A DNA stretch of 64,000 nucleotides from Mytilus trossulus (lineage: Eukaryota). The notes beneath the pieces were generated by a model. That model ran no database searches. It was given only the letters and a program-made list of their open reading frames with translations, and had not been told where the DNA came from. Shown one piece after another: positions 1 to 63,513 of this stretch. How positions within the stretch are numbered: the first letter of the stretch is position 1; each line of letters opens with the position of its first letter. A program made the position numbers and the translations under genes. The DNA lies in contig NC_086382.1 in assembly GCF_036588685.1 (NCBI RefSeq), positions 76,942,001 to 77,006,000 on the forward strand, written 5' to 3'.

Positions 1-2345
1 TATTAACACCGTATGATGGAGCCAACGGCACATCGCCGTCTAAAAAAGGAAAATTAACAATAGGAAATGAAAAATCGTCTCTTTTGTCGTAAATTGTAGT
101 GTGGAGTTTCCCATTTGAAATAGAAATGTCTAAATCTAGAAAAGGACAACTGCTGCTGTTTATGTTAGATTTAGTTAAAGTAAGTTCGTTTGGGTAAATA
201 AGTATATTTAGAGAACTCTGGATTATTCAACGAAAAAATATCATCCAGATAACGGTAGGTATTTTTGAATGTATCAACCAAATGTAACAATGATGGGTCT
301 TTACTGAGTTTGGTCATAAACTGAGATTCATAGCAATATAGAAATAAATCTGCTATTAAAGGGGCACAGTTGGTGCCCATAGGAATACCTACTACCTGAC
401 GATACACTTTATTATCGCCGAAACGTACATAAATGTTATCAAGTAGAAAGTTTAAAGCTTCAATCATATCCTCACATTTGCAGTAAGTGTATCTAGCATA
501 CTTTCCTTTTTCGTTGCAGAAAAAGGCCTTAAACGAGTTACAGCAAATAAAATTACAATGAGATTTTTCGAAAGACCATTTTATCAAATACGAAAACTTT
601 TTCTTTATAAGATTGTGTGGAAGTGTAGTGTACAGAGTAGAAAAATCATAACTGTCAACAGAATTGTAAGGACCATTGAAAGCATGTATTTAATCTAAAA
701 CCTCTAAAGAATTTTTAACACTCCAAAAAAAATTAATACCATTATTTTCATAAGCCTTATTACAAAAGTTAATAACCAGTTCTTTGATAGTAGTAAGGGA
801 GGTGGTTAGAAGCACTGATAGATTAGTAGTAGAACACTTACTCGAAGCGGAGATGAAACGGAATTTAAATGTTTTTTTTTGGTGTAATTTCGGTAACCAG
901 TACATGGTAGGGACTTTCAAATGTTCGGAAGATGCTTTAAGCTAGGCAGTGGCAGTGGTATGCTTGTTAACGATTTTACTCTCTGTGGTGCGCACTGACC
1001 TGAATGATAATTTCGTTTTGAAGACTTTCGAGTAGTATATGCGTCACACCACCACTACATTATTTGCTGCCTTGTCTGCCGGTACGAACACAAACCGCTC
1101 TGCGAGTACCTTGAGTTTGTTTTTTTATTCTAGAAATGGGTATATCATGGTTCCTATTATTAATTTCAGAATTGTTTTCTAAATGAGATATTCGAATATC
1201 AACAGTATTCATAATTTTATTCAAATAACTGTCTAAAGATTTTTTATCGGATTTTTCACGTTTGCACCAATTTTTACAATAGGCAGACAGAGCGTTTTTA
1301 ATAACCTGACGACACTGTTTCCAATCTATTGTAGATGGAGGACGGTATTTCGGTCCTTTCTTTAGAAAAGTTATGACTTCACGGTCATCGACTATGTTGA
1401 GGTCTCCTGTGATAACATTACCTTAGGGAACATATTTAAAACTAGATGTTTCGCAATCTCAAGTGGAAGGAACATTATTTTCTATATTGACGTCTGTTGT
1501 AATTGACGTATAATTGAAAATCAAATTTCTGCTCGGTTTTTTATAAGAATACGAAATAATGGGTTGTTCTATATTATCAAAATATGGAGGTATTAAGCTA
1601 TAGACAGAAGAGTCATTGAATATGCTAGACAAATTAATAAAATCAATACCTCTATTTATATATTTTAATTTGAGAAAATGTCGTTTATGATTTTCAGGTT
1701 TATCAATAATAAGAAAAAGCCTGTGATGACAAAAGGCTGTAATAATATGGGTGTATTCATAAAATGGGCTAAAAAAAGAAATTTTATCACACTCCAGAAA
1801 AATAGCATATAATTTACTTATAGGTATCTGACCCAGTTTGCATAATACTTGATGTCTGCCATTATTCTTTATTATAGATAACAGATCAGCAAGTGTATAA
1901 TTTATACGATGTTTAATACGTTGATTGCGGTTCTTGCGTTTACCATGAGACCTATTATCTCTAAGTCGTTTATCAACAATATTAATGACATCGATATGAG
2001 TTTTAGATATGTTCCCCTGCCCTAATATTTTATCATTTAGACCGAGAGGATAAGCTGTTTGAAGTCTTTTTATCCAAAACAATTCGCGAACTTCGCGTGA
2101 TTTTTCAAATTGCTTGTGCGATTCTCCTGGTTGTTTTTGAACGGTTTCGAGCGGTTGGAATTTTATATATTTCAGATTATGATTATGCTTATCTAAATGC
2201 TGATATACTAAACTTTTGAATTTTTTGGGTCTACGAAAGCGGTACAGATGTTCTTGATTTCTTCTGAAATACTCTCGTCCCGTCTGTCCCACATATTGAA
2301 TACCACACTTAGGTTGGGTTCTAGTTACCACATATATTAGGTTTT
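1..2345 (-). mobile_element. Decayed Penelope-like retroelement (Naiad-type: N-terminal GIY-YIG endonuclease then RT), copy 1; runs off the window start
   Basis: ORF pieces 1459-2331 (NLIY..CGIQYVGQT, RELFWIKRLQTAYPLGLN = GIY-YIG), 690-920 (MYWLPKLH, FRFISAS) and 171-587 (GIPMGTNCAPLIADLFL, RYLDD). The YDFSTLYT motif lies between them in frame. Stops and frameshifts are present. Confidence 0.93.
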
Positions 2346-2425
2346 GAGTCTTTTGTAAACGAGACGCGCGTATATGCGTGAATACAAAATTATATCTTGG
2401 TATCTGTGATAGGTTTAACTATTAA
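2345..2425 (+). repeat. Degenerate hammerhead/pLTR fragment, inverted relative to the adjacent PLE ORF (mirrored at ~32588-32668 and ~44377-44457)
   Basis: tgagtcttttgtaaacgagacgcgcgtatatgcgtgaatacaaaattatatcttggtatc matches the hammerhead-bearing repeat at 13815-13885 and abuts the 5'-truncated GIY-YIG sequence. Confidence 0.6.
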
Positions 2426-3221
2426 ACACCGTTTCTTATATTATTATTATTTTGCTGTTAAAATATAATCTAGATTAGTTTAACTTGCCGTTTTCTAATA
2501 AAATAACCATCTCGAGGACAGCAACCAAACAACGGGTTGTCCGATATGTCTGAAAAAATGGGGCAGATAGATCTTGACCAGATAAACATTTTATATCTAT
2601 ATAATATGTTAAAATAGGAGTACAGCAGTCAACATTGTGTTATAATCTTTATAAACATTAAGTAACAAACAAATGTTTCAAACAAAGAAACACAAAAAGA
2701 CCTATAGACAGAGTACATTATTAAAAATAAAAGACAATTATACAAAAGTAGACTAAACAGTATAAGTAGTATTCACATAGGCAAATAAAAGAACATTGTA
2801 ACACGTAATTAAGATTAACAACGTCAGTACCTAGCTATAGTTCAAGAGCATCGTATATTATGTTTAGTTAATACGGTTATCAACAAGGTCTTGGAAGCTT
2901 CCAATGAACTTTTTGTGGAAAGGGACGAGACGTTCTTTGACCTAACCCTGGTTTATCAACTTTCTGATCAGTAACTAGTGAAAGTCTGTGTAGCGGATGC
3001 AAGCTCTTGAATACCACACAAACTTGGTTATATATTACCGATATCGATACTCTTTAGATTGGGGAAATTTATATTTCAAAATTAAAAACGGCTCGTCTGT
3101 CATATATTCTGGGATGACTGCTTATTAATAATTCGAGGAATAGTTTCAAAATAAGATAGAGAAAACCGTGTCTGTTGTTTCTTTAATTTCTTTAATTTGC
3201 CAAATATTCAACATCAAGAAT

Positions 3222-3840
3222 GAGAGGCGAAAGATACCAGAGGAACAGTCAAACTCATAGATCGAAAATAAACTGACAACACCATGGCTAAAAAATAAAA
3301 AGACAAAGAGACAAATAGTAGTACACATGACGCAACATAGAAAACAAAAGAATTTAGAACAACACCAATAGCACCACAAACTGGGGGTGATCTCAGGTGC
3401 TCCGGAAGGTAATCAGATCCTGCTCCACATGTGGCACCCGTCTTGTTGCTCGTGTTATTACAAACCCGGTAAATTGTCTAATGCGGTAGGTCACATTTGT
3501 GGTGAAAAGGGAAGTAAATTGTTGTTACGTCATGAGGAGTATTTCCGATATCATCTGTGAAACGGTTATTCCATACCGGTCAACCAACTCGTGATGGCGT
3601 CCGTTAAATTTACGAAAGAATGATCGCAACCCTCTTTCAAAGAAATTTACCTTTCCAGAGCACCCGAGATCACCCCTAGTTTTTGGTGGAGTTCGTGATG
3701 TTTATTCTTTTGTTTTCTATGTTGTGTCATGAGTACTATTGTTTGTCTGTTTGTCTTTTTTCATTTTTAGCCATGGCGTTGTCAGTTTGTTTTAGATTCA
3801 TGAGTTTGACTGTCCCTTTGGTATCTTTCGTCCCTCTTTA
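3222..3840. mobile_element. 3' end/pLTR of a second PLE family (3222-3630, minus) with an inverted partial copy (3648-3840, plus); also at 31173-31791 and 45254-45872
   Basis: The minus strand translates as FRKFNGRHHELVDRYGITVSQM, a PLE RT C-terminus. The ~190-bp arms are imperfect inverted repeats (gaaagataccagaggaacagtcaaactcat / atgagtttgactgtccctttggtatctttc). Confidence 0.75.
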
Positions 3841-4629
3841 AGAACAATGTTTTTTAATTCAATCTAAAAACATCAAAGTGAAGAAACTTTTGCATTCTAA
3901 AAGATATATTTTGAAATCATATTACTGACAAATCCTTCCTTATATATAATTATCTTTCTATCTTATTTTATTGACTAAAAGGAATCATGTTCACAACCTA
4001 CATGTCTATGAATTATTAATACTGGGTAAATGATATTCCTTCTCTTGAAAATCCATATAACTTATGAAACAAAACGGTAACCGGATACAAATTATATAAA
4101 AGAGAAACAAATGATTGATATCTTTATCCAACAAAAAGGGGGATATGTTTACTGACATATCCTGCCTTATACTAGTATATAACTATCTTTCTATCTTATT
4201 TTATTGACTAGATGTTTATTTGAATAATATGAAACAAAACGGTAACCAGATACAAATTATATAAAAACATATCACACAAAAAGGGGTATATGTTCAGAGT
4301 ATTAATTCAGTTTAACTATAGAAAAAAACAGGTTTCACGCTCAGAAAGGATAACATAATGAAAGAGAAGATATTTTAGATTTCCTTGTTTTAATATTTAA
4401 AAAAAAACCAAATGGAACAAAAATTAATAGTTGACATGTATATGCGTACACAAGATTAAATGATCACAAAATGGCATTAGCACACCTATGTTTTAGATTT
4501 AAAGATAGAGTTAGGGTAAGGATTAAGGTTAGGTTCACAGATATTGAATTCATCGACGAAGACATGACACATACACAGGTTGTATGAACAGTAACACTTT
4601 ATGTACAGAAAAAAAAGAACACCAACTGG

Positions 4630-6725
4630 CTAATAATTACCATCAGTCGCTTGCTTTCACAGCGTTGTTAATAATTACCATCAGTCGCTTGGTTCTACAG
4701 TGTTGTTGATAAGTACCATCAGTCGCTTGCCTAGGTTTCACAGGACTGTTAATAATAACCACCAGTCCCTTGTCAGGTTTCATAGTGTTGTTTACAAATT
4801 ACCATCAGTCATTTACCTGGTTTCACAGTGTTGTTAACAATCAACATCGTTCGCTTGCTTGGTTTCACAGTGTTGTTAACAATCACCATCAGTCGCTTTC
4901 CTGGTTTCACAGTGTTGTTGATAATTACCATCAGTCACTTGCCTGGTTTCACAGTGTTGTTAATAATTACCATCAGTCACTTGCCTGGTTTCACAGTGTT
5001 GTTAATAATTACCATCAGTCACTTGCCTGGTTTCACAGTGTTGTTGATAATTACCATCAGTCGCTTGCCTGGTTTCACAGTGTTGTTAATAATTACCATC
5101 AGTTGCTTGCCTGGTTTCACAGTGTTGTTAATAATTACTATCAGTCGCTTGCCTGGTTTCACAGTGTTGTTTATAATTAACATCAGTCGCTTGCCTGGTT
5201 TTACAGTGTTGTTAATAAGTACCATCAGTCGCTTGCCTAGGTTTCACAGTGTTATTATTCATTACCATCAGTCGCTTGCCTGGTTTCACAGTGTTATTAT
5301 TAATTAACATCAGTCGCTTGCCTGGTTTCACAGTGTTGTTAATAATTAACATCAGTCGCTTGCCTGGTTTTACAGTGTTGTTGATAATTACTATCAGTCG
5401 CTTGTCTGGTTTTACAGTGTTGTTAATAATTACTATCAGTCGATTGGTTTACAGTGTTGTTAATAATTACCATCAATCGCTTGCCTGGTTTCACAGTGTT
5501 GCTAATAGTTACCATCAGTCACTTGCCTGGTTTCACAGTGTTGTTGATAATTACCATCAGTCGCTTGCCTTGTTTTACAGTGTTGCTAATAATTACCATC
5601 AGTCGCTTGCCTTGTTTTACAGTGTTGCTAATAATTACCATCAGTCGCTTGCCTTGTTTTACAGTGTTGCTAATAATTACCATCAGTCGCTTGCCTTGTT
5701 TTACAGTGTTGCTAATAATTACCATCAGTCGCTTGCCTTGTTTTACAGTGTTGCTAATAATTACCATCAGTCGCTTGCCTGGTTTCACAGTGTTGCTAAT
5801 AATTACCATCAGTCGCTTGCCTTGTTTTACAGTGTTGCTAATAGTTACCATCAGTCGCTTGCCTTGTTTTACAGTGTTGTTAATAATTACCATCAGTCGC
5901 TTGCCTTGTTTTACAGTGTTGCTAATAATTACCATCAGTCGCTTGCCTTGTTTTACAGTGTTGCTAATAATTACCATCAGTCGCTTGCCTTGTTTTACAG
6001 TGTTGCTAATAATTACCATCAGTCGCTTGCCTTGTTTTACAGTGTTGCTAATAATTACCATCAGTCGCTTGCCTTGTTTTACAGTGTTGCTAATAATTAC
6101 CATCAGTCGCTTGCCTTGTTTTACAGTGTTGCTAATAATTACCATCAGTCGCTTGCCTTGTTTTACAGTGTTGCTAATAATTACCATCAGTCGCTTGCCT
6201 GGTTTCACAGTGTTGCTAATAATTACCATCAGTCGCTTGCCTTGTTTTACAGTGTTGCTAATAGTTACCATCAGTCGCTTGCCTTGTTTTACAGTGTTGT
6301 TAATAATTACCATCAGTCGCTTGCCTTGTTTTACAGTGTTGTTAATAATTACCATCAGTCGCTTGCCTTGTTTTACAGTGTTGCTAATAATTACCATCAG
6401 TCGCTTGCCTTGTTTTACAGTGTTGTTAATAATTACCATCAGTCGCTTGCCTTGTTTTACAGTGTTGCTAATAATTACCATCAGTCGCTTGCCTGGTTTT
6501 AAAGTGTTGTTAATAATAAACAACAGTTTCTTGCCTGGTTTCACAGTGTTGTTTATAATAAAGATCAGTCGCTTGCCTGGTTTCACAGTGTTGTTAATAA
6601 TTACCATCAGTCACTTGGTTTCACAGTGTTATTAATAAATACCATCAGTCACTTGCCTGGTTTCACTGTGTTGGTAATACTAAACATCAGTCACTTGCCT
6701 GGTTTCACAGTGTTGTTAATAATTA
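4630..6725 (+). repeat. 42-bp minisatellite, ~50 units, copy 1
   Basis: Unit AATAATTACCATCAGTCGCTTGCCT(T/G)GTTT(T/C)ACAGTGTTG(C/T)T; homogeneous core with degenerate edges. Confidence 0.98.
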
Positions 6726-8414
6726 AAACAATATTTTTGTTATCTTTAAATGCATTTGTGTATGTAAATCTTTTAATTTTTTAATTTTTTGGTATAAGAC
6801 AACAACCATATTATACATTTAATTATTGGTTTGTAACGATGAGTAATATCTGGTGTATTTCTTCTGTAGGCATAAAGTATTGATGCTGCAGGCTCTTAGT
6901 TCAGGGAATTTATTCCAAACTTTTGTAGTTTGGAAAACGAATGAATATGGTAACTAACTTTGTTGCATCGAATTTGTCTGTATAGTTGTTTGTGATAAGA
7001 CCTGGAATTGTGGTCATAAATCTTTCGAATCTTTTAGACCCGGATATCAACCAATCAAAATACAGGATTTGTTGTTGCGAGCACAATTTTACTCCGAGTA
7101 CCGGTGTTTGTTTAGCTTCAGATTAGGGTTAGGTTACCATACAGTATAGCAATTTTGTTGTTCAACGTGTTTTATCTGCTTTAAATGTTTGCTATGTGAA
7201 CGCTTTCCTTCCACAATGAGAAAACGAAATCGTAATCGTCAATAAAATTTCCGTACATGGAAAATATGAATCAATTCAACTTGTTGATATTGATGTGGGA
7301 AAGACCTTCTGATGAGTTTCATTCATATATTACAATTAAACTTAGATTTGAATCTTCTCCGTGAGTTTTATACCAAGTAAACGTAGATTTCAATGTTCTC
7401 TGAGAGTTTTCGTGCGAAGTAAACATTTATTTAAACAGCTAGATCTTCTACAAGAGCTCATAAATCAATATGCATATAATCAAAATAAAATAAAAACATA
7501 GATAAATTTTTGACACGAATTAATAATTAAAATGAAACTTGGAGATTAAAGTTTTAAGATATTTCTAGAAGAGTCTTGATACAGAATTCAAATTATAAAG
7601 TTAAGGCAATGAGTTTTTAAACAAAATAATTTTGGGGGAAATGATTTTTTTCCTAATTACTTACGCGCGTCTGGCGTATTAAAGATAACTTTAAGAACTT
7701 TTTACTTCCTCTCAGTTTAAAAAAAAAGTCGACAAATGAATTTTTTTATTTAATTCTTGTTCAAGAACACATAAAACAGAATAATTCAGATAAATCCTCA
7801 AGTCACTAAAAAGTAGTATACTCCATTGATAACAACATAAGGCATAAAACTTTTGTATAATTGTATTTCAAAAAATGTTAACATACATTTTGTTTATAAA
7901 TTAATATCAGCAGCTGTCAACTTATCAGTGGAATATTGAAAGGATACATAAAAAAGCTTGGTTTCATGAAGTAAAACTATACATCAAGAAAAGCTTGGTT
8001 CATGAAGTAAAAAATGTAACAAGCACATTTGGTAAACAAAATATAAAAAGTGTTTAGAAATAAAATAAAAAAAGATTTAGTAAATATGATATAGGTAAAC
8101 AATTATCCCATTTTATGAAGTCATTTGTTAACCTTGAGAACATACTGTTTTATTCAAGTGATTTCAACCGATATCAAAGGATATCTATATATTTTCTTTT
8201 TTCATCGCATTGATTAAATTCTAAATGACTTTCTCAGACATTTTTGTTTGGCTTGACAAATACAGATTTAACTATTTTTTATTTCATTACCAATATTTTA
8301 ATTGCCAATTAGTGGTTTCTCATCTGAAACTGAAACCTTTTAAATTACAATTTTTTTTTTCTTGCTTGATGCATTTAAACACAAAACAGTTTCTCTTTAT
8401 GTAAGAGACTTTTG

Positions 8415-8548
8415 TGACGTGTTCTTTTATAAGTTGAACATATTTATAAAGTCCTGTGTTCTGCAGCGCCCTTGTCATTCCAGTGGTGATCAACGTCGAC
8501 AGTGGGTCTTTATTGGAGCGGGAAGCAAGTTCATATTGTGAAAAAGAG
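8415..8548 (+). promoter_or_regulatory. Predicted core promoter and non-coding exon 1 of the GH5-like gene (copies at 19824-19957 + and 56878-57011 -)
   Basis: TGACGT at 8415, TATAAA at 8445-8450, Inr-like TCATTC at 8475-8480 (A+1 is 32 nt after the TATA start), splice donor GAG|GTAAAT at 8548/8549. Confidence 0.6.
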
Positions 8549-9373
8549 GTAAATGTTTTATATTATATATTTTACAAGGTTTTCTTTTATGAATATTGAA
8601 ACATTCAAAATGACAAGAAAAAATTAAAATCACAAAACTCCTAAATCGAAACACAAAGGAAAATTCAAGACAAAAAAGCCAAAATCAAAAGTTCAAACAC
8701 ATCAAACGAATGGATAACATCTCTGATATTCCTGACTTGGTACATGCATTTTCTGATTTAGAAAATGGTGGATTGAACTCGGTTGTATAGCTAGCTAAAC
8801 CTCTCACTTGGATGACAGTCGCATCAAATTCCATAATATTGACAATGATGTGCGAACAAACTAAACAGACACAAAAGGTTAAAATGCTTCAACCAATAAT
8901 GCTAACCCCAACAAAAACATGGGATGATATCACATGTGAAATCCGTCGTGTATTGCTTATTCTATTACAAAGCCGATTCATACTCTTAATTCAGTAAGTC
9001 ATATTCGTGAAATACGAACGCGATTTAGCCATGTGTTTACGGACTTTCTAATTGAATTTTCCTCGGAGTTCAGTATTTTGTCATTTAACTTTTTTGCAGT
9101 TAGGACATAAGAAATATATCCAATATCACATGTGAAACACATAATCCATAACGGTCAACCCACTCGTGATGGCGTCTGCAAGATTTACGAAGTGATAATT
9201 TCAACTTCACCATTTGGAACTTTGGAAAAGGTCAGAATTCAGAAGCTGAAATTAACATTTTGTCGTAAAGTTTTGATTTCAACCGACCCTTTTGTCAATT
9301 TCTAGATAAAATCCTTATCAAAAGTCATAAAATGTCAAAAGCTCAAATACTTATGCGTTTGTTTGTTTTTCAG
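8549..9373 (+). other. Predicted 5'UTR intron (825 bp) of the GH5-like gene, filled with repeat fragments (copies at 19958-20782 + and 56053-56877 -)
   Basis: GT at 8549. Acceptor tttgtttgtttttcag ends at 9373, 20 nt before the ATG. Contains a minus-strand PLE RT relic (LRKSCRRHHEWVDRYG, ~9100-9300) and a dispersed repeat (~8700-8850) also seen near 60085-60200. Confidence 0.6.
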
Positions 9374-9393
9374 CACCTAAAGAATACGTTATA

Positions 9394-10470
9394 ATGTTCC
9401 AGATACATCCTAAAATGATGACAATTGTGGTATTAGTTATCATATGTGCATTCTGTTTGAAAGATTCTTTAGCCAGACATAATCCATATACACCAACTAA
9501 ATACCAGAAGAAGATAGCTCAAGGATTTTCCACGAATTATTTCAAAACCCTCAATTTCAAGAAATACAACAAGAAAAACTTAGCTGATATTTATGAACGA
9601 GGTTTTAGAAATGTACGATTAAGATGTAGAGCAGATCTTGACAATTTAAACATGGCTATCTTTTTGGATAATTTAGAGACTGTCGTGAACGATTGTCTTG
9701 CTACGAACATTGCTCCAATAATTTCTTGGATCCATCACGAGGCCGAAGCTTTCGCTACTGAATCACATCGAACCAATTATTTGAAGTGGTGGAGACGAGT
9801 TGCTGAAAAGCTGAAAGATAAGGACTACAGACTTTCATTCAACCTATTTACAGAACTAGGAGTCGACTCATGTGAAAATGAGTGCGCACAAAGTCTCAGA
9901 GAAAACACAGCAAAATACAACGACTGGACATCTGCTGTCGTAAAAAAGATAAGAAAATCCGGCGGAAAGAATGATAAACGGATGCTGATTCTAGGTTCTC
10001 CAAAGAAAACTGCTAAAGGATTAGAAGAAATCGACCAAAATATTTATAAAAACGATCCTTATATGATGGCAGAGTGGCATATCTATGCATCCGGACCAAA
10101 TAAAAAACTAACGAACGACGGAAATCCAGGTCAAAAATATTGGTCTGGGACTGGCGACGATTTTGGAAAAAGTAATGTCATGCTTGCCATCGGATATGCA
10201 AACTATTTTACATCATTTTACAATTTGACCACTTATCTTGGTGCTTGGATGCCACAAGCTAATGAATTCGGGGACTTGAACCAATCGGAAATCATTAATT
10301 TTGGAAAATATTTTGTCCAAGTAATCAAACCGATCCCTTGGTCGATGAATGTTCTTGATACCTACTACGACACAAGGAACAGCGATTGGAAATTAGATGA
10401 CCAGGTTATCAAAGGTCAGACATTGAATATGTCACGAGTTCTGGATGAAATTATATCGGTTATGAAATGA
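9394..10470 (+). CDS. Secreted glycoside hydrolase family 5 (cellulase-fold)-like protein, 358 aa, intronless CDS, copy 1
   Basis: Hydrophobic signal peptide (predicted cleavage near SLA|RH). GH5 barrel motifs occur in order: GFRNVRLR, ISWIHHE, FNLFTE154, KRMLILGS, AEWH229IY231, TYLGAW, IPWSMN. Confidence 0.88.
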   Translation: MFQIHPKMMTIVVLVIICAFCLKDSLARHNPYTPTKYQKKIAQGFSTNYFKTLNFKKYNKKNLADIYERGFRNVRLRCRADLDNLNMAIFLDNLETVVNDCLATNIAPIISWIHHEAEAFATESHRTNYLKWWRRVAEKLKDKDYRLSFNLFTELGVDSCENECAQSLRENTAKYNDWTSAVVKKIRKSGGKNDKRMLILGSPKKTAKGLEEIDQNIYKNDPYMMAEWHIYASGPNKKLTNDGNPGQKYWSGTGDDFGKSNVMLAIGYANYFTSFYNLTTYLGAWMPQANEFGDLNQSEIINFGKYFVQVIKPIPWSMNVLDTYYDTRNSDWKLDDQVIKGQTLNMSRVLDEIISVMK

Positions 10471-12454: not shown

Positions 12455-12498
12455 ACACCAGATGCGCATTTCGACAAAACATGTCTCTTCAGTGATGC
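12455..12498 (-). ncRNA. Minimal type I hammerhead ribozyme with intact core, copy 1
   Basis: Minus strand reads GCAUCA CUGAAGA GACA-UGUUU-UGUC GAAA U-GCGC-A UC UGGUGU: stem I GCAUCA/UGGUGU, CUGANGA core, 4-bp stem II, GAAA, palindromic stem III, AUC cleavage triplet. Confidence 0.82.
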
Positions 12499-12714
12499 TC
12501 GTGGCCAAAATATTTGAAATCCAAAGCTTATATAAAGGATGAAGAGCTATAATCATATCAAACATAGGTGTGAAACAATTTTAATTTGTTAATACCTAGC
12601 ATGCAAAACAAGTATCTTCACCATAACTGTTTTTTTTTTCATTGCATTCTGAAGGAATATGAGTTTATAATAATCGAATTTAAATTGTAATAGATATTTA
12701 TTTAGCTATATTGC

Positions 12715-12880
12715 GTCGGGGAGGGGGTTGGGGTCCTGATCCCAAAATCCCGAGGTCCCGAATTTAAAAAAAGACCCAAAGATACCGAAATCGCATGATT
12801 AAAAATACCCGATCCCGACGTCCCAAAAAATGTCCTGCCCCTCATCTCCCGACCCAAACCCCCCAACCCCAACCCCCTCA
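12715..12880. repeat. Short GC-rich dispersed element with G-rich/C-rich complementary ends (copies at 24124-24289 and 52546-52711)
   Basis: Begins ggggagggggttgggg, ends cccccaaccccaacccc, with internal atcccg motifs. Confidence 0.5.
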
Positions 12881-12952
12881 TATTGTGTATTTTTATACTT
12901 CTGCTAGTCTTTGCAATTAGACCGGTTTTCATTCGTTCAATAATCTAACTTC

Positions 12953-13411: not shown

Positions 13412-13489
13412 GTTTGTCGTTCAATAAACGACAATAAGGCGACAATAAGCTTCAACAAACGACTCTTAAGCGCCAAAAACTTAAGACGG

Positions 13490-14600: not shown

Positions 14601-14716
14601 TATTATCATATTCATAATACTTAAAATAAATGTCTGACATGTTTTTTTACTTTATAAATCTGAACATATTAAATTCTGTGTAATATGTCTTTTTTAGTGA
14701 AATGTCACTTATGATA

Positions 14717-46661: not shown

Positions 46662-48757
46662 CTAATAATTACCATCAGTCGCTTGCTTTCACAGCGTTGT
46701 TAATAATTACCATCAGTCGCTTGGTTCTACAGTGTTGTTGATAAGTACCATCAGTCGCTTGCCTAGGTTTCACAGGACTGTTAATAATAACCACCAGTCC
46801 CTTGTCAGGTTTCATAGTGTTGTTTACAAATTACCATCAGTCATTTACCTGGTTTCACAGTGTTGTTAACAATCAACATCGTTCGCTTGCTTGGTTTCAC
46901 AGTGTTGTTAACAATCACCATCAGTCGCTTTCCTGGTTTCACAGTGTTGTTGATAATTACCATCAGTCACTTGCCTGGTTTCACAGTGTTGTTAATAATT
47001 ACCATCAGTCACTTGCCTGGTTTCACAGTGTTGTTAATAATTACCATCAGTCACTTGCCTGGTTTCACAGTGTTGTTGATAATTACCATCAGTCGCTTGC
47101 CTGGTTTCACAGTGTTGTTAATAATTACCATCAGTTGCTTGCCTGGTTTCACAGTGTTGTTAATAATTACTATCAGTCGCTTGCCTGGTTTCACAGTGTT
47201 GTTTATAATTAACATCAGTCGCTTGCCTGGTTTTACAGTGTTGTTAATAAGTACCATCAGTCGCTTGCCTAGGTTTCACAGTGTTATTATTCATTACCAT
47301 CAGTCGCTTGCCTGGTTTCACAGTGTTATTATTAATTAACATCAGTCGCTTGCCTGGTTTCACAGTGTTGTTAATAATTAACATCAGTCGCTTGCCTGGT
47401 TTTACAGTGTTGTTGATAATTACTATCAGTCGCTTGTCTGGTTTTACAGTGTTGTTAATAATTACTATCAGTCGATTGGTTTACAGTGTTGTTAATAATT
47501 ACCATCAATCGCTTGCCTGGTTTCACAGTGTTGCTAATAGTTACCATCAGTCACTTGCCTGGTTTCACAGTGTTGTTGATAATTACCATCAGTCGCTTGC
47601 CTTGTTTTACAGTGTTGCTAATAATTACCATCAGTCGCTTGCCTTGTTTTACAGTGTTGCTAATAATTACCATCAGTCGCTTGCCTTGTTTTACAGTGTT
47701 GCTAATAATTACCATCAGTCGCTTGCCTTGTTTTACAGTGTTGCTAATAATTACCATCAGTCGCTTGCCTTGTTTTACAGTGTTGCTAATAATTACCATC
47801 AGTCGCTTGCCTGGTTTCACAGTGTTGCTAATAATTACCATCAGTCGCTTGCCTTGTTTTACAGTGTTGCTAATAGTTACCATCAGTCGCTTGCCTTGTT
47901 TTACAGTGTTGTTAATAATTACCATCAGTCGCTTGCCTTGTTTTACAGTGTTGCTAATAATTACCATCAGTCGCTTGCCTTGTTTTACAGTGTTGCTAAT
48001 AATTACCATCAGTCGCTTGCCTTGTTTTACAGTGTTGCTAATAATTACCATCAGTCGCTTGCCTTGTTTTACAGTGTTGCTAATAATTACCATCAGTCGC
48101 TTGCCTTGTTTTACAGTGTTGCTAATAATTACCATCAGTCGCTTGCCTTGTTTTACAGTGTTGCTAATAATTACCATCAGTCGCTTGCCTTGTTTTACAG
48201 TGTTGCTAATAATTACCATCAGTCGCTTGCCTGGTTTCACAGTGTTGCTAATAATTACCATCAGTCGCTTGCCTTGTTTTACAGTGTTGCTAATAGTTAC
48301 CATCAGTCGCTTGCCTTGTTTTACAGTGTTGTTAATAATTACCATCAGTCGCTTGCCTTGTTTTACAGTGTTGTTAATAATTACCATCAGTCGCTTGCCT
48401 TGTTTTACAGTGTTGCTAATAATTACCATCAGTCGCTTGCCTTGTTTTACAGTGTTGTTAATAATTACCATCAGTCGCTTGCCTTGTTTTACAGTGTTGC
48501 TAATAATTACCATCAGTCGCTTGCCTGGTTTTAAAGTGTTGTTAATAATAAACAACAGTTTCTTGCCTGGTTTCACAGTGTTGTTTATAATAAAGATCAG
48601 TCGCTTGCCTGGTTTCACAGTGTTGTTAATAATTACCATCAGTCACTTGGTTTCACAGTGTTATTAATAAATACCATCAGTCACTTGCCTGGTTTCACTG
48701 TGTTGGTAATACTAAACATCAGTCACTTGCCTGGTTTCACAGTGTTGTTAATAATTA
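46662..48757 (+). repeat. 42-bp minisatellite, copy 4
   Basis: Same as copy 1 at +42032. Confidence 0.98.
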
Positions 48758-51700
48758 AAACAATATTTTTGTTATCTTTAAATGCATTTGTGTATGTAAA
48801 TCTTTTAATTTTTTAATTTTTTGGTATAAGACAACAACCATATTATACATTTAATTATTGGTTTGTAACGATGAGTAATATCTGGTGTATTTCTTCTGTA
48901 GGCATAAAGTATTGATGCTGCAGGCTCTTAGTTCAGGGAATTTATTCCAAACTTTTGTAGTTTGGAAAACGAATGAATATGGTAACTAACTTTGTTGCAT
49001 CGAATTTGTCTGTATAGTTGTTTGTGATAAGACCTGGAATTGTGGTCATAAATCTTTCGAATCTTTTAGACCCGGATATCAACCAATCAAAATACAGGAT
49101 TTGTTGTTGCGAGCACAATTTTACTCCGAGTACCGGTGTTTGTTTAGCTTCAGATTAGGGTTAGGTTACCATACAGTATAGCAATTTTGTTGTTCAACGT
49201 GTTTTATCTGCTTTAAATGTTTGCTATGTGAACGCTTTCCTTCCACAATGAGAAAACGAAATCGTAATCGTCAATAAAATTTCCGTACATGGAAAATATG
49301 AATCAATTCAACTGAACATTTTGTAACAAAGCAGTTTAGGAATAACGAAAACCACTTATCTACCAGCTATGTTGAAGACCTATTGGTGGCATTCGTATTT
49401 CAGCCAAAAGATCTCCTAATAACTTTTTCGGAGGGTAGATTGTAGTCTTATGTTAGTATTTCACGGGAATGTATCAAAAGCACATGACTGTTTATCTAAA
49501 TCTTCGAACGAACCAAATTGATAGTTTAATAAAAGAAGTCTTGCAGCCGTTTGAAGACATTTTAACGCCTGACTTGACCTTTACTCATTTGAAGATTAAA
49601 GTTGGATATATAAAGAGAGATAACTCTGATACTTTATTTTTAAAATACATTGAACTGCTGGCATTTTAACAGAGAATACTAATATTTTAATAATCTGAAC
49701 GAATTTAATAAAGCATATAACTTTGGAATTTTCTGAAAAATTGCATCTTTTTGTTTTGTTTTCAATCATACAAGTTTACACTTATGCGAATTTCAAAAAT
49801 ACATTTGCTTGAAAATAATTCAATATCATACATTTTTGTTTAGCAAATATAATTGATGTAATTACATTTTGTCGGGTCACTATTTTGCTTTTCATAATTT
49901 CATGTGCATTTTTCAGTAGCTTATTATCGTTTGGTTGATTGGTGAACGTCTTTAAGTAAGCTATCGACTTTGATGATATAATACACAATTACAAAGCTAT
50001 TTACTGTGTGAATATATAATATATGATTTTTTTCAAATAAGAAATAAGTTTTTCGAATTGAAGGTCATTACCTCCAGATTGATTTAATGATACTTATGTT
50101 TGATCGGATCATAAATTATTCATAGACTGTAAATAACAGGTGGGATCATTTAGTTGATTTGATATTGTGATCACAGGTTTATTTGATTCCCCCAATTTGC
50201 GTTTTACCTTCAAAGGAAAGTTTAATTTATTATAATTTTATTTTGATTTCATACATCACTATCATATGATTTATTGAGCGCAAAGTAAGTATTTTATGGC
50301 TACTAGTAATTGGTAACAACTTTATTAGAAGTAAAAAACAAAAATATCAGTTATTTCAAATCTGAAGGTAATAGTTATCAAAGGTACCAGGATTATAGTT
50401 TAGTTATTATAAGTAAATGTAAAATGTTAAATACATGATTTTAACGACAAAAAGTATATTTAAAATAAAGTCAGAAAGATTTTTTTCCTTCTGTATCATA
50501 ATTAATAGTAGGCGAAAAAACACCCTGTCAAAATACTGCAATTGTTGTACCCTCTCATAATAGGTAAACAGACTTTATAGCTTGTTGTTCGGTTTGAGCC
50601 AAAGGCTCCGTGTTGAAGGCCGTACTTTAACCTATAATGGTTTACTTTTTAAATTGTTACTCGGATGGAAAGTTGTCTCATTGGCACTCACACCACATCT
50701 TCCTATATCTATCATAAGTGACATTTCACTAAAAAAGACATATTACACAGAATTTAATATGTTCAGATTTATAAAGTAAAAAAACATGTCAGACATTTAT
50801 TTTAAGTATTATGAATATGATAATAGTGTTAAGATTAATATCAATAATGTGGTAATTTTTATAAATTTCCTGTTTACAAAACTTTTTCGAAAAACTAAAG
50901 ATTTTTTTTTATCCCAGGCATACATTACCTAAGCCGTATTTGGCACAACTTTTTGGAATTTTGGATCCTCAATGCTCTTCAACTTTGTACTTGTTTGGTT
51001 TTATAAATATTTTGATTTGAGCGTCACCTATGAGTCTTATGTAGACGAAACGCGCGTCTGGCGTACTAAGTTATAATCCTGGTATCTTTGATAACTATTA
51101 CAACAATGAAGCTAATGATAAATAGATTATGCAAATCAAAATTACTTTAACTTTAAGATAATACGGCATGAACGAATCCTTCAATCAACGGATTATACGA
51201 AGTGTTCATAAAAAATGTCTTAACATTTTCATTTATACCTTTTTACGCCGGTAAGTTTCAAATATTGATTAATAAACATTTCATCTAAAATATATAAAAA
51301 AAAACCTGTTTACTTTGAACAAAACAAATGTATTCATTAGTCTGACAGTATAGTAAACTGATTATAATACAAGTATACTAAAAAAGAAACTAAAGCATGT
51401 TTCTATATATGCTATTAAAGGTAACAGGATTATGATATTCGTTTTATTTGAAATAGACAATGTTTAAAATGTTGTAACGCTTAATATATTTTCTTGTCGC
51501 TAAACTAATTAAATATTTGTTCTTGTTACTAAATGAAGGAGGCTCATCATAGATACCAGGATGGAAATTTTGTATTTGCATCAGACATGCGTTTCGTCTA
51601 CAAAAGACTTATCGGTGACGATAGTATAAAAAAAGGCCAAATAAATGCCAAACAAAGTACGAGGAATATATGTTCACTAAGGACCAAATGTTTTGCCAAA

Positions 51701-52927
51701 TACAGCTAAGTTAATCTATTCCAAAGGTCAGAGAGCGGCTTAGTATAAAAAAAAATCAAAACTCTGTTAACTGTTAATCAACGACAATTAAAGTGAAGAC
51801 AGAATTGCTGACTACTGGTCTGATGAAACCTTCGGGCAATGAAAACCCCACAAACAGTGTCATCGACCCAGTGGTTGTAAATGAATTCATCAAAGATACC
51901 GGGATTGATATTTTGTATTTGTGCCAGACTCAGTTTCCGTCTTAAGTTTTTGGCGCTTAAGAGTCGTTTGTTGAAGCTTATTGTCGCCTTATTGTCGTTT
52001 ATTGAACGACAAACTCGTGATATAACAAAAAATAGGTAGCGTCTTCACATCATTCATTCACTCCCTCGATATATAACGAAAATAAGTGAGCGTATACACA
52101 TCAGCCATTCAATATCTCGTTATATAACGAAAACAAGTGAGCGTATACACATCATCCATTCACTATCTCGTGATATAACGAAAACTAGGTAGCTTCTACA
52201 CATCATCCATTCACTATCTCGTGATATGCCAAATTAAGGTAGCGTCTACACATTTTTCATACACTATGTCGTGATATAACGAAAGAGAAGTAGCGTCTAC
52301 ACATCATCCATTCACTATCTCGTGATATGACAAAATTTAGGTAGCGTCTACACATTTTTCATACACTATGTCGTGATATAACGAAAGAGAGGTAGCGTCT
52401 ACACATCATTTATTCCATATCTCGAGATATAACAAAAGTTAGGTAGCGTTTACGCATCATTCATTCACTATCTGAAGTTAGATTATTGAACGAATGAAAA
52501 CCGGTCTAATTGCAAAGACTAGCAGAAGTATAAAAATACACAATATGAGGGGGTTGGGGTTGGGGGGTTTGGGTCGGGAGATGAGGGGCAGGACATTTTT
52601 TGGGACGTCGGGATCGGGTATTTTTAATCATGCGATTTCGGTATCTTTGGGTCTTTTTTTAAATTCGGGACCTCGGGATTTTGGGATCAGGACCCCAACC
52701 CCCTCCCCGACGCAATATAGCTAAATAAATATCTATTACAATTTAAATTCGATTATTATAAACTCATATTCCTTCAGAATGCAATGAAAAAAAAAACAGT
52801 TATGGTGAAGATACTTGTTTTGCATGCTAGGTATTAACAAATTAAAATTGTTTCACACCTATGTTTGATATGATTATAGCTCTTCATCCTTTATATAAGC
52901 TTTGGATTTCAAATATTTTGGCCACGA

Positions 52928-52971
52928 GCATCACTGAAGAGACATGTTTTGTCGAAATGCGCATCTGGTGT
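52928..52971 (+). ncRNA. Minimal type I hammerhead ribozyme, copy 3
   Basis: gcatcactgaagagacatgttttgtcgaaatgcgcatctggtgt read directly on the plus strand. Confidence 0.82.
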
Positions 52972-54955
52972 AACAAAATTGGTACCGTTGATTTTATTTG
53001 AAGCAATATAAGTTATGTCTATATCTGTATTCATTACGTAAGATTGAACCTGTGTTTTGAATGGTCCCCTGCTAAAACATTTCGAGAATAAACCAATTTT
53101 ATTTTAATCAATTTTCTAAATTTATATACTTAGTTCAAGAGGGGAAAATTTATTTCATTAGTATAAATATTCTGCATAGTGCTGACTGTCAAAATCATAA
53201 AAATAAGCATCGAATCAAACTCATGGAGAAGACTGAAATATAACGGTTAAAATTTACATTGAACCGCGAATCAAAACTTGTGAAGAGAATATTGAATCAA
53301 AACTCATTTCGAAGACAGATAATGATGGTTTGATTAATAGTGAATCGCGTACCAAAAACAACGAAAAGACAACAAACATGAGGACCACTAGTTAAAAGCT
53401 GCAATGAAAATGTTTTTTCGCTAAATACAGTAATTTTATCATTACTTATGGAGGCATGTCTTTGTAATACGTTCTTTTTGTTTTTACCAATATGCTGTTG
53501 GTTATGAAATAATGAACTTTGATTTGATCCCACCAATGATGTATATAACTGTATTAGTATTATATTCGTGTCTATAGTTACATCTTTATGCATGTATGTT
53601 TTTGTCACTTTTGTATCTTTTTGCTAATCAAAAGTATCTGATCAATGAATCATTTTCACATTTTACTTTACTGGACTCGAGGTCTCTTTTGTTTTTGTCT
53701 AATGAGAAATTATTTTCTTCAAGGTGCCGTTCGTATTATTTTTTGTTTAGCTTGCTTTTTTTTTTAATTTCTGCCACATCAATTTTTTCATGACGGTCTA
53801 GTATTGGCAACAAAACCTCGATCAGATGCCTGGTTGCCAGAGAGTTAACGTCATGTTGAGGGTTTTTATTTATTGACGCAAAAGCCAGAACAATGTATCA
53901 CATAATATATGCCCTTACTGTATGTTACAAACATACATCATTATAATCTGAAATTAGATTTGTCTGCACGAATGTATTTTTTTTTTACATTTGCTTATAA
54001 ACAACTTAACCACACTGTAACCAAATACACTTTTTCAGTAAGTAATATGTAACCAAATACATTTTTTAAGTAAGTAATCATATTAAGGAAAATTACATTA
54101 TTGTGGAGCAACTTTTATTTGTGGGTATCAGTTTTCCTGGTTACGGCAAAAAAACAGTTACCTGTTCATTGGTTTCTAAATTTTCGAAAAGAACCATTAT
54201 AAAGTGACTAATTTCAACTACGAATATTCGTGATGTTATATCTTATGTTTTATAATGAAGTGTGGGACACTGTAAGATCAGGTGTTAAAAAGAATAAGAA
54301 GTAAAATCACAAAAATACTGAACTCCGAGGAAAATTTCACTCACTTGTTCTTTTTTCATTTCTAACAGCTTTTGCAAATTAGCAGATTTATCTATGTTTA
54401 CAAAATAAGGGCAAATGATACCAGAGGGACATTTAAACTCACAGATTGAAAATGAACTTACAACTACACGCACTGCGTTATATTATACGAAAATATGTAT
54501 TTATTAACATAATGGATTTATAGTGGATATATGACACAAGTTAAAAATATGTCAACATAAGATAGATACTGTATCAGAAAACGCTAAGTATAACTCATCT
54601 AAATCATGTGATAAATCAGCAAAGAAGAAAAAAGAAAAATAACATAGAATCATCTAACAAAAACCTGATAATATATCAAATACAATATAATAAAGAGACA
54701 ATTTTCATGTGTACAATTTCTAAATTTATGACGTCACTGGTACCTTTAAACTTTCTTTTTAGAGAATGTATCAAACGTTTTTGGTATCTCACTTGATCGA
54801 TAGAGGGTTTTCTTTGTAAATTGTTTGAATGTATTTCAAATTTCCTCGATATTTTTATGGAATATCGAATAAACGATCTAATTATATTGAATGTCTTAAT
54901 ATTAGTGTTTATAAATTAGTATAAAAACCATGGAAAAAAAATGTTTTTTCTGAAT

Positions 54956-56032
54956 TCATTTCATAACCGATATAATTTCATCCAGAACTCGTGACATATT
55001 CAATGTCTGACCTTTGATAACCTGGTCATCTAATTTCCAATCGCTGTTCCTTGTGTCGTAGTAGGTATCAAGAACATTCATCGACCAAGGGATCGGTTTG
55101 ATTACTTGGACAAAATATTTTCCAAAATTAATGATTTCCGATTGGTTCAAGTCCCCGAATTCATTAGCTTGTGGCATCCAAGCACCAAGATAAGTGGTCA
55201 AATTGTAAAATGATGTAAAATAGTTTGCATATCCGATGGCAAGCATGACATTACTTTTTCCAAAATCGTCGCCAGTCCCAGACCAATATTTTTGACCTGG
55301 ATTTCCGTCGTTCGTTAGTTTTTTATTTGGTCCGGATGCATAGATATGCCACTCTGCCATCATATAAGGATCGTTTTTATAAATATTTTGGTCGATTTCT
55401 TCTAATCCTTTAGCAGTTTTCTTTGGAGAACCTAGAATCAGCATCCGTTTATCATTCTTTCCGCCGGATTTTCTTATCTTTTTTACGACAGCAGATGTCC
55501 AGTCGTTGTATTTTGCTGTGTTTTCTCTGAGACTTTGTGCGCACTCATTTTCACATGAGTCGACTCCTAGTTCTGTAAATAGGTTGAATGAAAGTCTGTA
55601 GTCCTTATCTTTCAGCTTTTCAGCAACTCGTCTCCACCACTTCAAATAATTGGTTCGATGTGATTCAGTAGCGAAAGCTTCGGCCTCGTGATGGATCCAA
55701 GAAATTATTGGAGCAATGTTCGTAGCAAGACAATCGTTCACGACAGTCTCTAAATTATCCAAAAAGATAGCCATGTTTAAATTGTCAAGATCTGCTCTAC
55801 ATCTTAATCGTACATTTCTAAAACCTCGTTCATAAATATCAGCTAAGTTTTTCTTGTTGTATTTCTTGAAATTGAGGGTTTTGAAATAATTCGTGGAAAA
55901 TCCTTGAGCTATCTTCTTCTGGTATTTAGTTGGTGTATATGGATTATGTCTGGCTAAAGAATCTTTCAAACAGAATGCACATATGATAACTAATACCACA
56001 ATTGTCATCATTTTAGGATGTATCTGGAACAT
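54956..56032 (-). CDS. Secreted GH5-like protein, copy 3 (inverted)
   Basis: Translation identical to copy 1. Confidence 0.88.
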   Translation of the reverse strand: MFQIHPKMMTIVVLVIICAFCLKDSLARHNPYTPTKYQKKIAQGFSTNYFKTLNFKKYNKKNLADIYERGFRNVRLRCRADLDNLNMAIFLDNLETVVNDCLATNIAPIISWIHHEAEAFATESHRTNYLKWWRRVAEKLKDKDYRLSFNLFTELGVDSCENECAQSLRENTAKYNDWTSAVVKKIRKSGGKNDKRMLILGSPKKTAKGLEEIDQNIYKNDPYMMAEWHIYASGPNKKLTNDGNPGQKYWSGTGDDFGKSNVMLAIGYANYFTSFYNLTTYLGAWMPQANEFGDLNQSEIINFGKYFVQVIKPIPWSMNVLDTYYDTRNSDWKLDDQVIKGQTLNMSRVLDEIISVMK

Positions 56033-58845
56033 TATAACGTATTCTTTAGGTGCTGAAAAACAAACAAACGCATAAGTATTTGAGCTTTTGACATTTTATG
56101 ACTTTTGATAAGGATTTTATCTAGAAATTGACAAAAGGGTCGGTTGAAATCAAAACTTTACGACAAAATGTTAATTTCAGCTTCTGAATTCTGACCTTTT
56201 CCAAAGTTCCAAATGGTGAAGTTGAAATTATCACTTCGTAAATCTTGCAGACGCCATCACGAGTGGGTTGACCGTTATGGATTATGTGTTTCACATGTGA
56301 TATTGGATATATTTCTTATGTCCTAACTGCAAAAAAGTTAAATGACAAAATACTGAACTCCGAGGAAAATTCAATTAGAAAGTCCGTAAACACATGGCTA
56401 AATCGCGTTCGTATTTCACGAATATGACTTACTGAATTAAGAGTATGAATCGGCTTTGTAATAGAATAAGCAATACACGACGGATTTCACATGTGATATC
56501 ATCCCATGTTTTTGTTGGGGTTAGCATTATTGGTTGAAGCATTTTAACCTTTTGTGTCTGTTTAGTTTGTTCGCACATCATTGTCAATATTATGGAATTT
56601 GATGCGACTGTCATCCAAGTGAGAGGTTTAGCTAGCTATACAACCGAGTTCAATCCACCATTTTCTAAATCAGAAAATGCATGTACCAAGTCAGGAATAT
56701 CAGAGATGTTATCCATTCGTTTGATGTGTTTGAACTTTTGATTTTGGCTTTTTTGTCTTGAATTTTCCTTTGTGTTTCGATTTAGGAGTTTTGTGATTTT
56801 AATTTTTTCTTGTCATTTTGAATGTTTCAATATTCATAAAAGAAAACCTTGTAAAATATATAATATAAAACATTTACCTCTTTTTCACAATATGAACTTG
56901 CTTCCCGCTCCAATAAAGACCCACTGTCGACGTTGATCACCACTGGAATGACAAGGGCGCTGCAGAACACAGGACTTTATAAATATGTTCAACTTATAAA
57001 AGAACACGTCACAAAAGTCTCTTACATAAAGAGAAACTGTTTTGTGTTTAAATGCATCAAGCAAGAAAAAATTAAATTGTAATTTAAAAGGTTTCAGTTT
57101 CAGATGAGAAACCACTAATTGGCAATTAAAATATTGGTAATGAAATAAAAAATAGTTAAATCTGTATTTGTCAAGCCAAACAAAAATGTCTGAGAAAGTC
57201 ATTTAGAATTTAATCAATGCGATGAAAAAAGAAAATATATAGATATCCTTTGATATCGGTTGAAATCACTTGAATAAAACAGTATGTTCTCAAGGTTAAC
57301 AAATGACTTCATAAAATGGGATAATTGTTTACCTATATCATATTTACTAAATCTTTTTTTATTTTATTTCTAAACACTTTTTATATTTTGTTTACCAAAT
57401 GTGCTTGTTACATTTTTTACTTCATGAACCAAGCTTTTCTTGATGTATAGTTTTACTTCATGAAACCAAGCTTTTTTATGTATCCTTTCAATATTCCACT
57501 GATAAGTTGACAGCTGCTGATATTAATTTATAAACAAAATGTATGTTAACATTTTTTGAAATACAATTATACAAAAGTTTTATGCCTTATGTTGTTATCA
57601 ATGGAGTATACTACTTTTTAGTGACTTGAGGATTTATCTGAATTATTCTGTTTTATGTGTTCTTGAACAAGAATTAAATAAAAAAATTCATTTGTCGACT
57701 TTTTTTTTAAACTGAGAGGAAGTAAAAAGTTCTTAAAGTTATCTTTAATACGCCAGACGCGCGTAAGTAATTAGGAAAAAAATCATTTCCCCCAAAATTA
57801 TTTTGTTTAAAAACTCATTGCCTTAACTTTATAATTTGAATTCTGTATCAAGACTCTTCTAGAAATATCTTAAAACTTTAATCTCCAAGTTTCATTTTAA
57901 TTATTAATTCGTGTCAAAAATTTATCTATGTTTTTATTTTATTTTGATTATATGCATATTGATTTATGAGCTCTTGTAGAAGATCTAGCTGTTTAAATAA
58001 ATGTTTACTTCGCACGAAAACTCTCAGAGAACATTGAAATCTACGTTTACTTGGTATAAAACTCACGGAGAAGATTCAAATCTAAGTTTAATTGTAATAT
58101 ATGAATGAAACTCATCAGAAGGTCTTTCCCACATCAATATCAACAAAATAAAAAAAATATAACTTTTTTTTGGTGCATTAGAAAGTAGTGTTTTTGGTGA
58201 CAATTCCTTCAAGAAATGTGGAAGTGTCTTAAGAAAACTGATACTGCCTCTACCTTTGACTGATTAATTTGATTGTTTGAAAATAACATAAATTTATTTA
58301 TCATAACATTTCAGTTTGACGAATATTATTTAGATTTTTCTGTTTGGCCTTGCAAGTTTTGCCCCTCTAGTACATATTTTTAGGTAACATTTAGAAAGTT
58401 TAGTGTTGAAAAGTAAGGATAGAAGAAGCGGATCCAGCCATTTTTCAAATGGGGTTCCACCTATATGTCCCCATTCAAATGCATGATTGATCGTGAAAAA
58501 TTGCGGGCTTTAACTGCCAGAACCCCCATCCCCCTTCGGTGGATAGCTTGAATAGGTATTTAGTTCTGATTCTGGCATTCCAAAATAAGGCCGACTTTTT
58601 TTAATTTGAAACACTGACTCACGAATTGGGTTAATGTACCTGGCGAGGTGCCCTATTGGCTAGGGGATTGGGCCGCTTAAGCCACACCATCCACCACCTC
58701 GAAGCTCTGGGATAAAATGGTGCAAACCTGAATGCTGGCATCTCCTGGCACTAAATTTGAAAGCTGGAAAATATTATTTCTTTAAATAAAATTCTAATTT
58801 ATGCACAAAAAAAAAAGTCAAGAAAAGTAGAAAATAATATATATA

Positions 58846-62901: not shown

Positions 62902-62904
62902 TGA

Positions 62905-63512: not shown

Positions 63513-63513
63513 T

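Follow-up and report, generated by a model that had tools for sequence, protein, structure and literature searches.

The stretch analysed here, a window of 64,000 nucleotides from the 1.3-Gb genome assembly of the mussel Mytilus trossulus (C10:76,942,001-77,006,000, on scaffold NC_086382.1; window positions are C10 positions minus 76,942,000), holds two to four near-identical copies of a 19-kb stretch that includes a gene for a glycoside hydrolase family 5 (GH5)-like protein and lies 8 kb from a pure telomere. Self-comparison confirmed the block order A B a B U A′ S A U′ B′ C that an earlier sequence-only reading had proposed (Table 1), with S in single copy and a copy-number pattern of 1-3(4)-3-4-2-3-1 within the window. 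The kilobase-long perfect matches among the copies are far beyond chance, the tandem pair 4265-15676 / 15674-27085 being 100% identical across 11,412 bp. In fact, the copies differ at two places only, namely an AA-to-T change and 210 extra bases in a 42-bp array. The AA-to-T change, carried near 8354/19763 by both inverted B copies, is taken as derived because the other haplotype (see below) has the core version. The earlier claim that the amplification is very recent is supported.

The copies are joined at junctions referred to as J1 to J4, and the strand is reversed four times within 57 kb, with arms of 3-19 kb. The sequence-only reading had derived the locus from an ancestral order S-A-U′-B′-C through three new junctions. 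The microhomologies it named (T at 7281/7282 and AAA at B|a) are present, and a TA was found at 37689/37690; its count of junctions did not hold, since at least eight junction types are needed (three at J4; J2; J3; J1; host-Ngaro; Ngaro-Ngaro; Ngaro-telomere). The ancestral order itself stood for A-U′-B′-C, which is the order on the second haplotype and whose joints are bridged by contigs of other samples (58146 in X2, X3 and X4, and 49750 in one X4 contig). S, on the other hand, is no plain flank, because it begins with exact copies of 237 and 301 bp taken from 54-66 kb away; for 38225-38384, the 1.2 Mb fetched yielded no source. Next to this lies an inverted duplication with a single-copy spacer, 39356-58146 being inverted about 38225-39355. 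J2 is present twice and J3 once. Because of this repetition, and because both inverted B copies share the derived change, J2 is older than the 11.4-kb repeat, as had been claimed. No inverted-repeat pair was detected at either end of J2; among reverse-strand matches, the best were 12-19 bp long (E at least 0.03) and none lay at a breakpoint. Three breakpoints (39356, about 39505 and about 39568) fall within about 210 bp, all inside one high-copy element, and the Ngaro junction at 43277 falls within a degenerate Penelope-like fragment, in which we recognised what we take to be a GIY-YIG-like motif.

Upstream of position 1, about 2.7 kb matching 39356-42032 and then another copy of S had been predicted. 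Only 2.47 kb of such a match was found, and no S; there follow a fold-back, a retrotransposon piece (referred to as Z), a telomere and an assembly gap. Z consists of a 1,541-bp B-A-B segment, 99.8% identical to a C9 copy of a dispersed young element, plus roughly 190 bp more from that B repeat (A and B here being repeats of that element). A full copy of the element (L105) contains gag-like, reverse transcriptase (RT) and tyrosine-recombinase open reading frames (ORFs), and its A1/B1-A2-B2 split direct repeats comprise identical A repeats and identical B repeats; RVT_1 was matched at E 1.4e-9, and Phage_integrase at E 2.9e-4, below the curated cut-off. This is the layout described for Ngaro-like retrotransposons in the available part of PMC9210276 (A1-ORFs-B1-A2-B2 with RT and tyrosine recombinase), and the source element can be classed as putatively Ngaro-like, an assignment made from a layout that PAT-like elements share. 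Unlike the whole element depicted there, the piece under the mussel telomere is an internal B-A-B part without natural ends. A normal retrotransposon insertion was therefore rejected, and Z was read as a captured fragment. Both ends of the 1,541-bp segment (L010 2229-3769) lie in the same A-run of the B repeat, so that it spans exactly one B-A period, which could reflect a circular or complementary DNA (cDNA) intermediate, or a pause site. The young family (L105, L106, L107) has dozens of pieces genome-wide that are 97-100% identical, with identical split repeats, and was probably active recently. The telomere begins at an internal GG of the Ngaro-like copy, without variant repeats. For comparison, telomeres were found at 3 of 14 scaffold starts sampled (C2, C4 and C12), and all three have a degenerate base of roughly 150-900 bp. 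The assembled end is thus of the type with a new telomere or a captured end, a perfect 11,544-bp array seated on an internal GG of a young element, with the terminal fold-back beneath it unconfirmed by read depth.

The window belongs to contig X, which starts with this perfect CCCTAA array; gaps on C10 in the fetched sequence are at 76,922,390-489 and 77,290,624-723. Contig X matches the next contig, Y (from 77.29 Mb), in reverse over about 370 kb at 87-99% identity (Y 77.53-77.77 Mb, resuming at 77.805-77.858 Mb), and the contig preceding the gap matches Y 77.35-77.42 Mb in the same direction and order. Moreover, public run X1 contains the window sequence and a second allele, which equals Y at 20 of 21 sites (the 21 being those of 24 difference rows shown that remained after dropping three multi-contig repeat rows, the listing having 411 further rows). 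Because of the reversed match and this second allele, X and Y most likely represent two haplotypes of a single region, scaffolded in tandem, with X flipped and its telomere pointing inward. The telomere of this alternate haplotype would then have been left 1.5 Mb inside the C10 scaffold, ahead of Y, which we flag as an assembly issue. On its own haplotype, the window is 8-72 kb away from pure telomere.

Compared with Y, the 49-kb block at 37.7-86.6 kb is inverted, and a 36-kb Y segment carrying a second GH5-like gene has no counterpart on the window haplotype. The allele of Y 77.769-77.805 Mb was not found in the adjoining contigs. That of Y 77.860-77.866 Mb was not found genome-wide, where the only counterparts are paralogues of 77-85%, situated on C89 and close to the C4, C10, C12 and C14 ends. 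Within this interval, C10:77,860,365-77,861,887 has 84-85% paralogues near the C4, C10 and C14 ends and is likely a subtelomeric repeat family. Other searches for the distal-Y allele were uninformative (one matched only the young repeat, one only repeats, and sparse 10-kb C14 samples gave no match to distal Y). From C10:77,958,467 onward, Y matches the start of C14 (up to 714,821) in reverse at 91-99%, ending without a gap on C14, and this may be a translocation, a subtelomeric duplication or a misjoin; given this match, X may have lost tens of kilobases rather than hundreds. A second 100% palindrome, at window 82319-86600, has its end right at 86600, the proximal breakpoint of the inversion. 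It is suggested, though not proven, that the 49-kb inversion and the 36-kb loss with the second GH5-like gene were part of the same event as the repeats. An 88-bp inverted satellite piece (window 93485-93572) was discarded as a further mark of the event, being 98.9% identical to its own array and hence not datable to it. Contig Y has an inversion of its own (C10:77,824,555-77,844,726), flanked by a 3.9-kb inverted duplication of 99.6% identity, and a 100% identical 3.95-kb tandem duplication at C10:77,717,260-77,726,084.

Read depth was examined in public sequencing runs X1 to X4 (24 runs were listed, all DNA). The expected 4:2:3:1 ratio of copies fits in X1, a run carrying both haplotypes, where 13 of the 16 contigs listed were fitted against k-mer counts in X and Y (three were dropped, one because it ran off the stretch, two because they followed the other allele). 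The log root-mean-square error (log-rmse) was 0.059 for the structure as assembled and rose to 0.148 when the tandem unit was removed and to 0.330 when no amplification was assumed. At a unit depth of 29, this amounts to 3.9 copies at the end of A, 2.3 over what is mostly U′, 2.7-3.1 in B and 1.0 in C, and the tandem unit obtained a fitted weight of 22.7, with about 30 expected per copy, so that depth backs the extra unit implied by a doubled J2 and a single closing J3. J2 has indirect support from an X1 contig that stops right at 49313, a point past which X and Y run on alike. Because depth fits in this way, the amplification inside the window is well supported as real. No comparable depth step is evident in X2 or X4. 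In X3, depth relative to distal C is about twofold in B and 3-4-fold over the GH5-like gene, where it reaches 3-5 times the flanks (window 54876-55891). This was not accepted as the present rearrangement, as 8-20 differences per 500 bases separate the X3 contigs and 58146 is bridged by one of them, and was read as allele merging or paralogues; it suggests more paralogues or copy-number variation in other mussels.

Table 1. Features of the locus in window positions (negative values lie upstream of the window; C10 positions where stated)
Feature	Position	Strand	Remarks
Contig X (holds window)	C10:76,922,490-77,290,623		368 kb
100-N gap	-19610..-19511		
Perfect (CCCTAA)n	-19507..-7964		11,544 bp
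Ngaro-like piece Z	-7963..-6231		1.7 kb
Inverted copy	-6232..-2462	-	= 43277 to about 39505
Terminal fold-back J1	near -2460		loop about 60 bp; 7-of-8-bp inverted match; near 39505-39568
Forward A copy upstream	back to -2465	+	reaches only 39567, 2,466 bases
Inner part of terminal fold-back palindrome	1..1245		
Copy of A	1..7281	+	= 42033-49313, 100%
Tandem unit	4265..15673	+	11,409 bp; holds J2, one inverted B, one GH5-like gene
J2 (A|B)	7281..7282		strand switch 49313 -> 58146; 1-bp microhomology (T); repeated at 18690/18691
Inverted B copy 1	7282..15676	-	7281-15676 = 58146-49750 reversed; derived AA-to-T near 8354
GH5-like copy 1	9394..10470	+	single ORF, 358 aa; Glu154, Ala284
J3 (B|a)	15674..15676		AAA microhomology; putative loop-back onto already rearranged molecule
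Copy a	15674..18690	+	= 46297-49313
Inverted B-U-A′	18691..37689	-	= 58145 to 39356 (18690-37689 = 58146-39356 reversed)
GH5-like copy 2	20803..21879	+	protein identical to copy 1
42-bp tandem array	28078..30382	-	210-bp expansion, absent from other three copies
J4 (A′|S)	37689/37690		TA (2-bp) microhomology; left end of templated insertion 1
Templated insertion 1	37688..37924	+	237 bp; exact copy (100%) of satellite units, window 102529 or 104001
Templated insertion 2	37924..38224	+	301 bp, 100% identical to window 91852-92152
Rest of S, spacer of first fold-back	38225..39355	+	single-copy; depth 41.7 at 38540-38769
High-copy element	38929..40341		1.4 kb, 13-bp inverted ends; absent from other haplotype
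Core (template) copy A0-A-U′-B′	39356..58146	+	
Degenerate Penelope-like fragment	41995..44376	-	RT-like ORF, weak RVT_1 match
GH5-like copy 3 (original position)	54956..56032	-	
C	58147..64000	+	single copy, centromere-side flank

The sequence-only reading had the GH5-like gene going from one copy to three. The three ORFs translate identically, and the family count is three against two on Y, since the paralogue is absent here. The nearest named proteins, from Mytilus mussels, are 85-97% identical. The predicted fold is a GH5-type (beta/alpha)8 barrel (mean predicted local distance difference test score, pLDDT, 93.8), and the top Foldseek matches to the model are GH5_4 (E 1.7e-14; template modelling score, TM, 0.70). 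Pfam scans gave no family for this protein or for two Mytilus relatives, and its assignment draws on matches to Protein Data Bank (PDB) sequences and on the fold. In an alignment of 94 sequences (the query and 93 of the 120 matches listed), Glu154, which we take to be the GH5 acid/base residue after strand 4, is present in all 94. At position 284, presumably the site of the nucleophile Glu at the end of strand 7, 91 sequences have Ala and 3 have Glu; Ala284 aligns with IGAWG of 9bmk (which appears to be an engineered mutant) as against IGEWG of 9bjx. The protein is therefore probably not a conventional cellulase, judging from these residues, and the family may possibly consist of non-catalytic glycan binders or of enzymes with another mechanism. 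Such single-ORF proteins with Ala at the nucleophile site occur in Mytilus, sea anemones, corals, an acoel and many unnamed marine sequences, and thus form a widespread GH5-fold family without the usual nucleophile. With Ala at this site, dosage selection for a cellulase is unsupported, and nothing else indicates selection. Moreover, any gene inside the copied interval is amplified automatically, and the GH5-like gene is likely a passenger.

Taken together, the locus is a real and very recent complex rearrangement at a chromosome end, most likely healed by a telomere. At a probability of roughly 0.6, we consider the repeats to be the scar of a recent chromosome-end break, mended through a series of template switches, with a new telomere likely added as a cap. 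Reading from the centromere side, i.e. from right to left in the window, a strand would have ended near 38225, taken up the 301- and 237-bp pieces from their distant sources, and turned back at 39356. Reverse copying of 39356-58146, with the gain of one small mutation, would have been followed by the switch to 49313 that formed J2. At 46300 the strand would have looped back onto its own new strand at 49750 (J3), so that B and J2 were copied again, giving four copies of 46297-49313 and three of B. It would then have run out to 39568 and folded back near 39505-39568 on the 7-of-8-bp inverted match. Finally, at 43277, an A/T run would have served for a jump into a young Ngaro-like element, 1.5 kb of which was copied, with a slip of about 190 bp, before TTAGGG repeats began at the GG. 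The path, its junction sequences, the sources of the inserts and the purity of the telomere can be read directly from the assembled sequence; a replicative mechanism of the MMBIR type (break-induced replication mediated by microhomology) and healing by telomerase, in one event or in several, would have produced them. The marks of such a mechanism are 1-3-bp microhomologies, 100% identical templated inserts, a derived mutation common to inverted copies and one junction occurring twice. At J2/J3 themselves, a tandem duplication and a single replicative event would leave the same sequence.

Several observations weigh against this account. A model without the terminal fold-back copy fits X1 better (log-rmse 0.041 versus 0.059), the fitted weight of that copy is 1.9 (5-95%: 0-7.9) versus about 30 per copy, and two X1 contigs in 40631-41666 have 0.83 and 0.87 of the expected depth. 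The telomeric cap is likewise seen in the assembly only. Among the joints listed for X1 contigs on the window no novel junction was found, in tables swamped by repeats and with contigs that show presence only, and J2 alone is indirectly supported; X1 contigs cross 49750, 37924 and 38224 unbroken. X1 may itself be the source sample of the assembly and hence not independent. On C1, the base of an interstitial TTAGGG array is fairly abrupt as well; Y, for its part, is extended or misjoined, so that the amount of distal DNA lost is hard to size, and with no outgroup the larger X-Y differences cannot be dated. Finally, duplications of at least 99.5% identity are common nearby (10 pairs of at least 500 bp in about 1 Mb). 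The C1 region (C1:1,708,010-1,725,485) has no gap and contains two interstitial TTAGGG arrays, and a 1,102-bp satellite with short telomere runs follows the larger one; a search for telomere patterns gave 24,984 and 25,691 matches, and among the matches listed only C1 appeared.

The internal amplification could be real while the terminal fold-back, the Ngaro-like piece and the telomere occur in some cells only, as a somatic mosaic, or stem from a few reads chosen by the assembler. We regard this as unlikely, although it would explain why the X1 depth in 40631-41666 corresponds to 3.2-3.4 copies and not to 4, without a step relative to 44747-45200, and the contig does end at a gap. The depth evidence for it comes from two short neighbouring contigs, and Y-allele depths that run smoothly over 1.3 kb (31.7, 31.5, 30.7 and 31.7) suggest long reads. 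The depth of a long-read library can drop near a physical chromosome end. Moreover, S is single-copy in both assembly and depth, so that no alternative upstream copy is on record. An artefact of assembly or library, with the whole repeat structure built from chimeric fold-back reads, is far less probable still. Perfect palindromes near a contig end speak for it, X1 may be the same library, and no junction-spanning contigs were seen; nevertheless, depths close to whole-number copies, two private copy differences and exact inserts from so far away are unlike what random chimeras would yield at such depth.

Stepwise breakage-fusion-bridge cycles after telomere loss, with one fold-back per cycle until a telomere healed the end, are improbable. 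Such cycles suit a structure that ends in a telomere and in which the strand reverses at J4, J2 and J1 around one spacer each (1.1 kb, 8.8 kb and about 60 bp). However, a fold-back at J3 would have run the core into C instead of passing J2 again, so that J3 must be a loop-back or a tandem duplication and cannot result from these cycles alone. The 210-bp array expansion, furthermore, is found in the returning strand only and not in the copies made later, and arms of 3-19 kb would be short for bridge breaks. As little credence is given to the original model of the sequence-only reading as to an artefact, i.e. to an interstitial inverted triplication flanked by duplications (DUP-TRP/INV-DUP) with a later tandem duplication, kept by GH5 dosage selection. 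As with DUP-TRP/INV-DUP arrangements treated in the accessible portion of PMC11293582, template switches would have given direct and inverted copies with a similar copy-number staircase, the order of J2 before J3 fits, and conformers with an inverted distal duplication exist according to that portion. The same text, though, ties DUP-TRP/INV-DUP to an inverted-repeat pair at junction 1 and to two switches back to the normal chromosome, and the mussel locus has neither: no inverted repeat stands at either end of its junction 1, and the chain never returns to the distal chromosome but ends in a telomere where S had been expected, a point on which the assembled upstream sequence contradicts the model. 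The number of junction types, the lost paralogue, the absent nucleophile and the lack of an evident depth step in X2 or X4 likewise speak against it. The best reading is therefore a chain of template switches at a chromosome end, healed by a telomere and containing a rolling-circle-like repeat, and not DUP-TRP/INV-DUP.

This class of rearrangement is already known from humans and yeast. In the consulted sections of Hermetz et al. (PMC3907307), human inverted duplications with terminal deletion are explained by a fold-back model with spacers of 766-70,466 bp, and telomeres are added with 1-4 bp of microhomology. The mussel locus resembles these ends, as described there, in its single-copy spacer between inverted copies, its short microhomologies, its templated junction insertions and its telomere joined at a short microhomology. 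In contrast, the human cases in those sections typically have one fold-back and duplications of up to megabases, whereas the mussel end combines four reversals over a short distance, small arms, distant inserts and a retrotransposon piece under the telomere. A quadruplication at PLP1 attributed to rolling-circle MMBIR (patient P113; PMC4352052, in the part available) likewise has one junction twice and another once, 3- and 4-copy segments and a new small mutation; that event was interstitial, of about 280 kb and anchored in inverted low-copy repeats (LCRs), while the mussel repeat is terminal, 11.4 kb long and without an LCR. Yeast fold-back inversions among gross chromosomal rearrangements (GCRs), as far as the excerpted account in PMC7467729 goes, start from a short-stem hairpin and proceed by a template jump or de novo telomere addition, much as proposed here, but in selected laboratory mutants, as opposed to a natural animal genome with a piece of a tyrosine-recombinase retrotransposon captured by microhomology.

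Most known telomere-healed fold-back ends come from patients, tumours and yeast mutants, and in the literature searched, with its incomplete coverage, we found no bivalve case, the top 10 of 112 matches in one search making no mention of bivalves. A natural case resolved to the base would show the loss and rebuilding of a mussel chromosome end to be compatible with viability, with altered gene content on one haplotype. More tentatively, and with considerable doubt, the end may have been rebuilt in a single burst of template switches over about 100 kb that was heritable and present in essentially all cells, with 49 kb inverted, one GH5-like gene dropped and its paralogue tripled, part of an active Ngaro-like element captured and a full-length new telomere added. 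Hemizygosity and gene presence/absence variation in mussels have been published (PMC7653742, as available in part). If true, such a burst would be a natural, non-model case of telomere-healed chromoanasynthesis and a concrete route to gene presence/absence variation in mussels.

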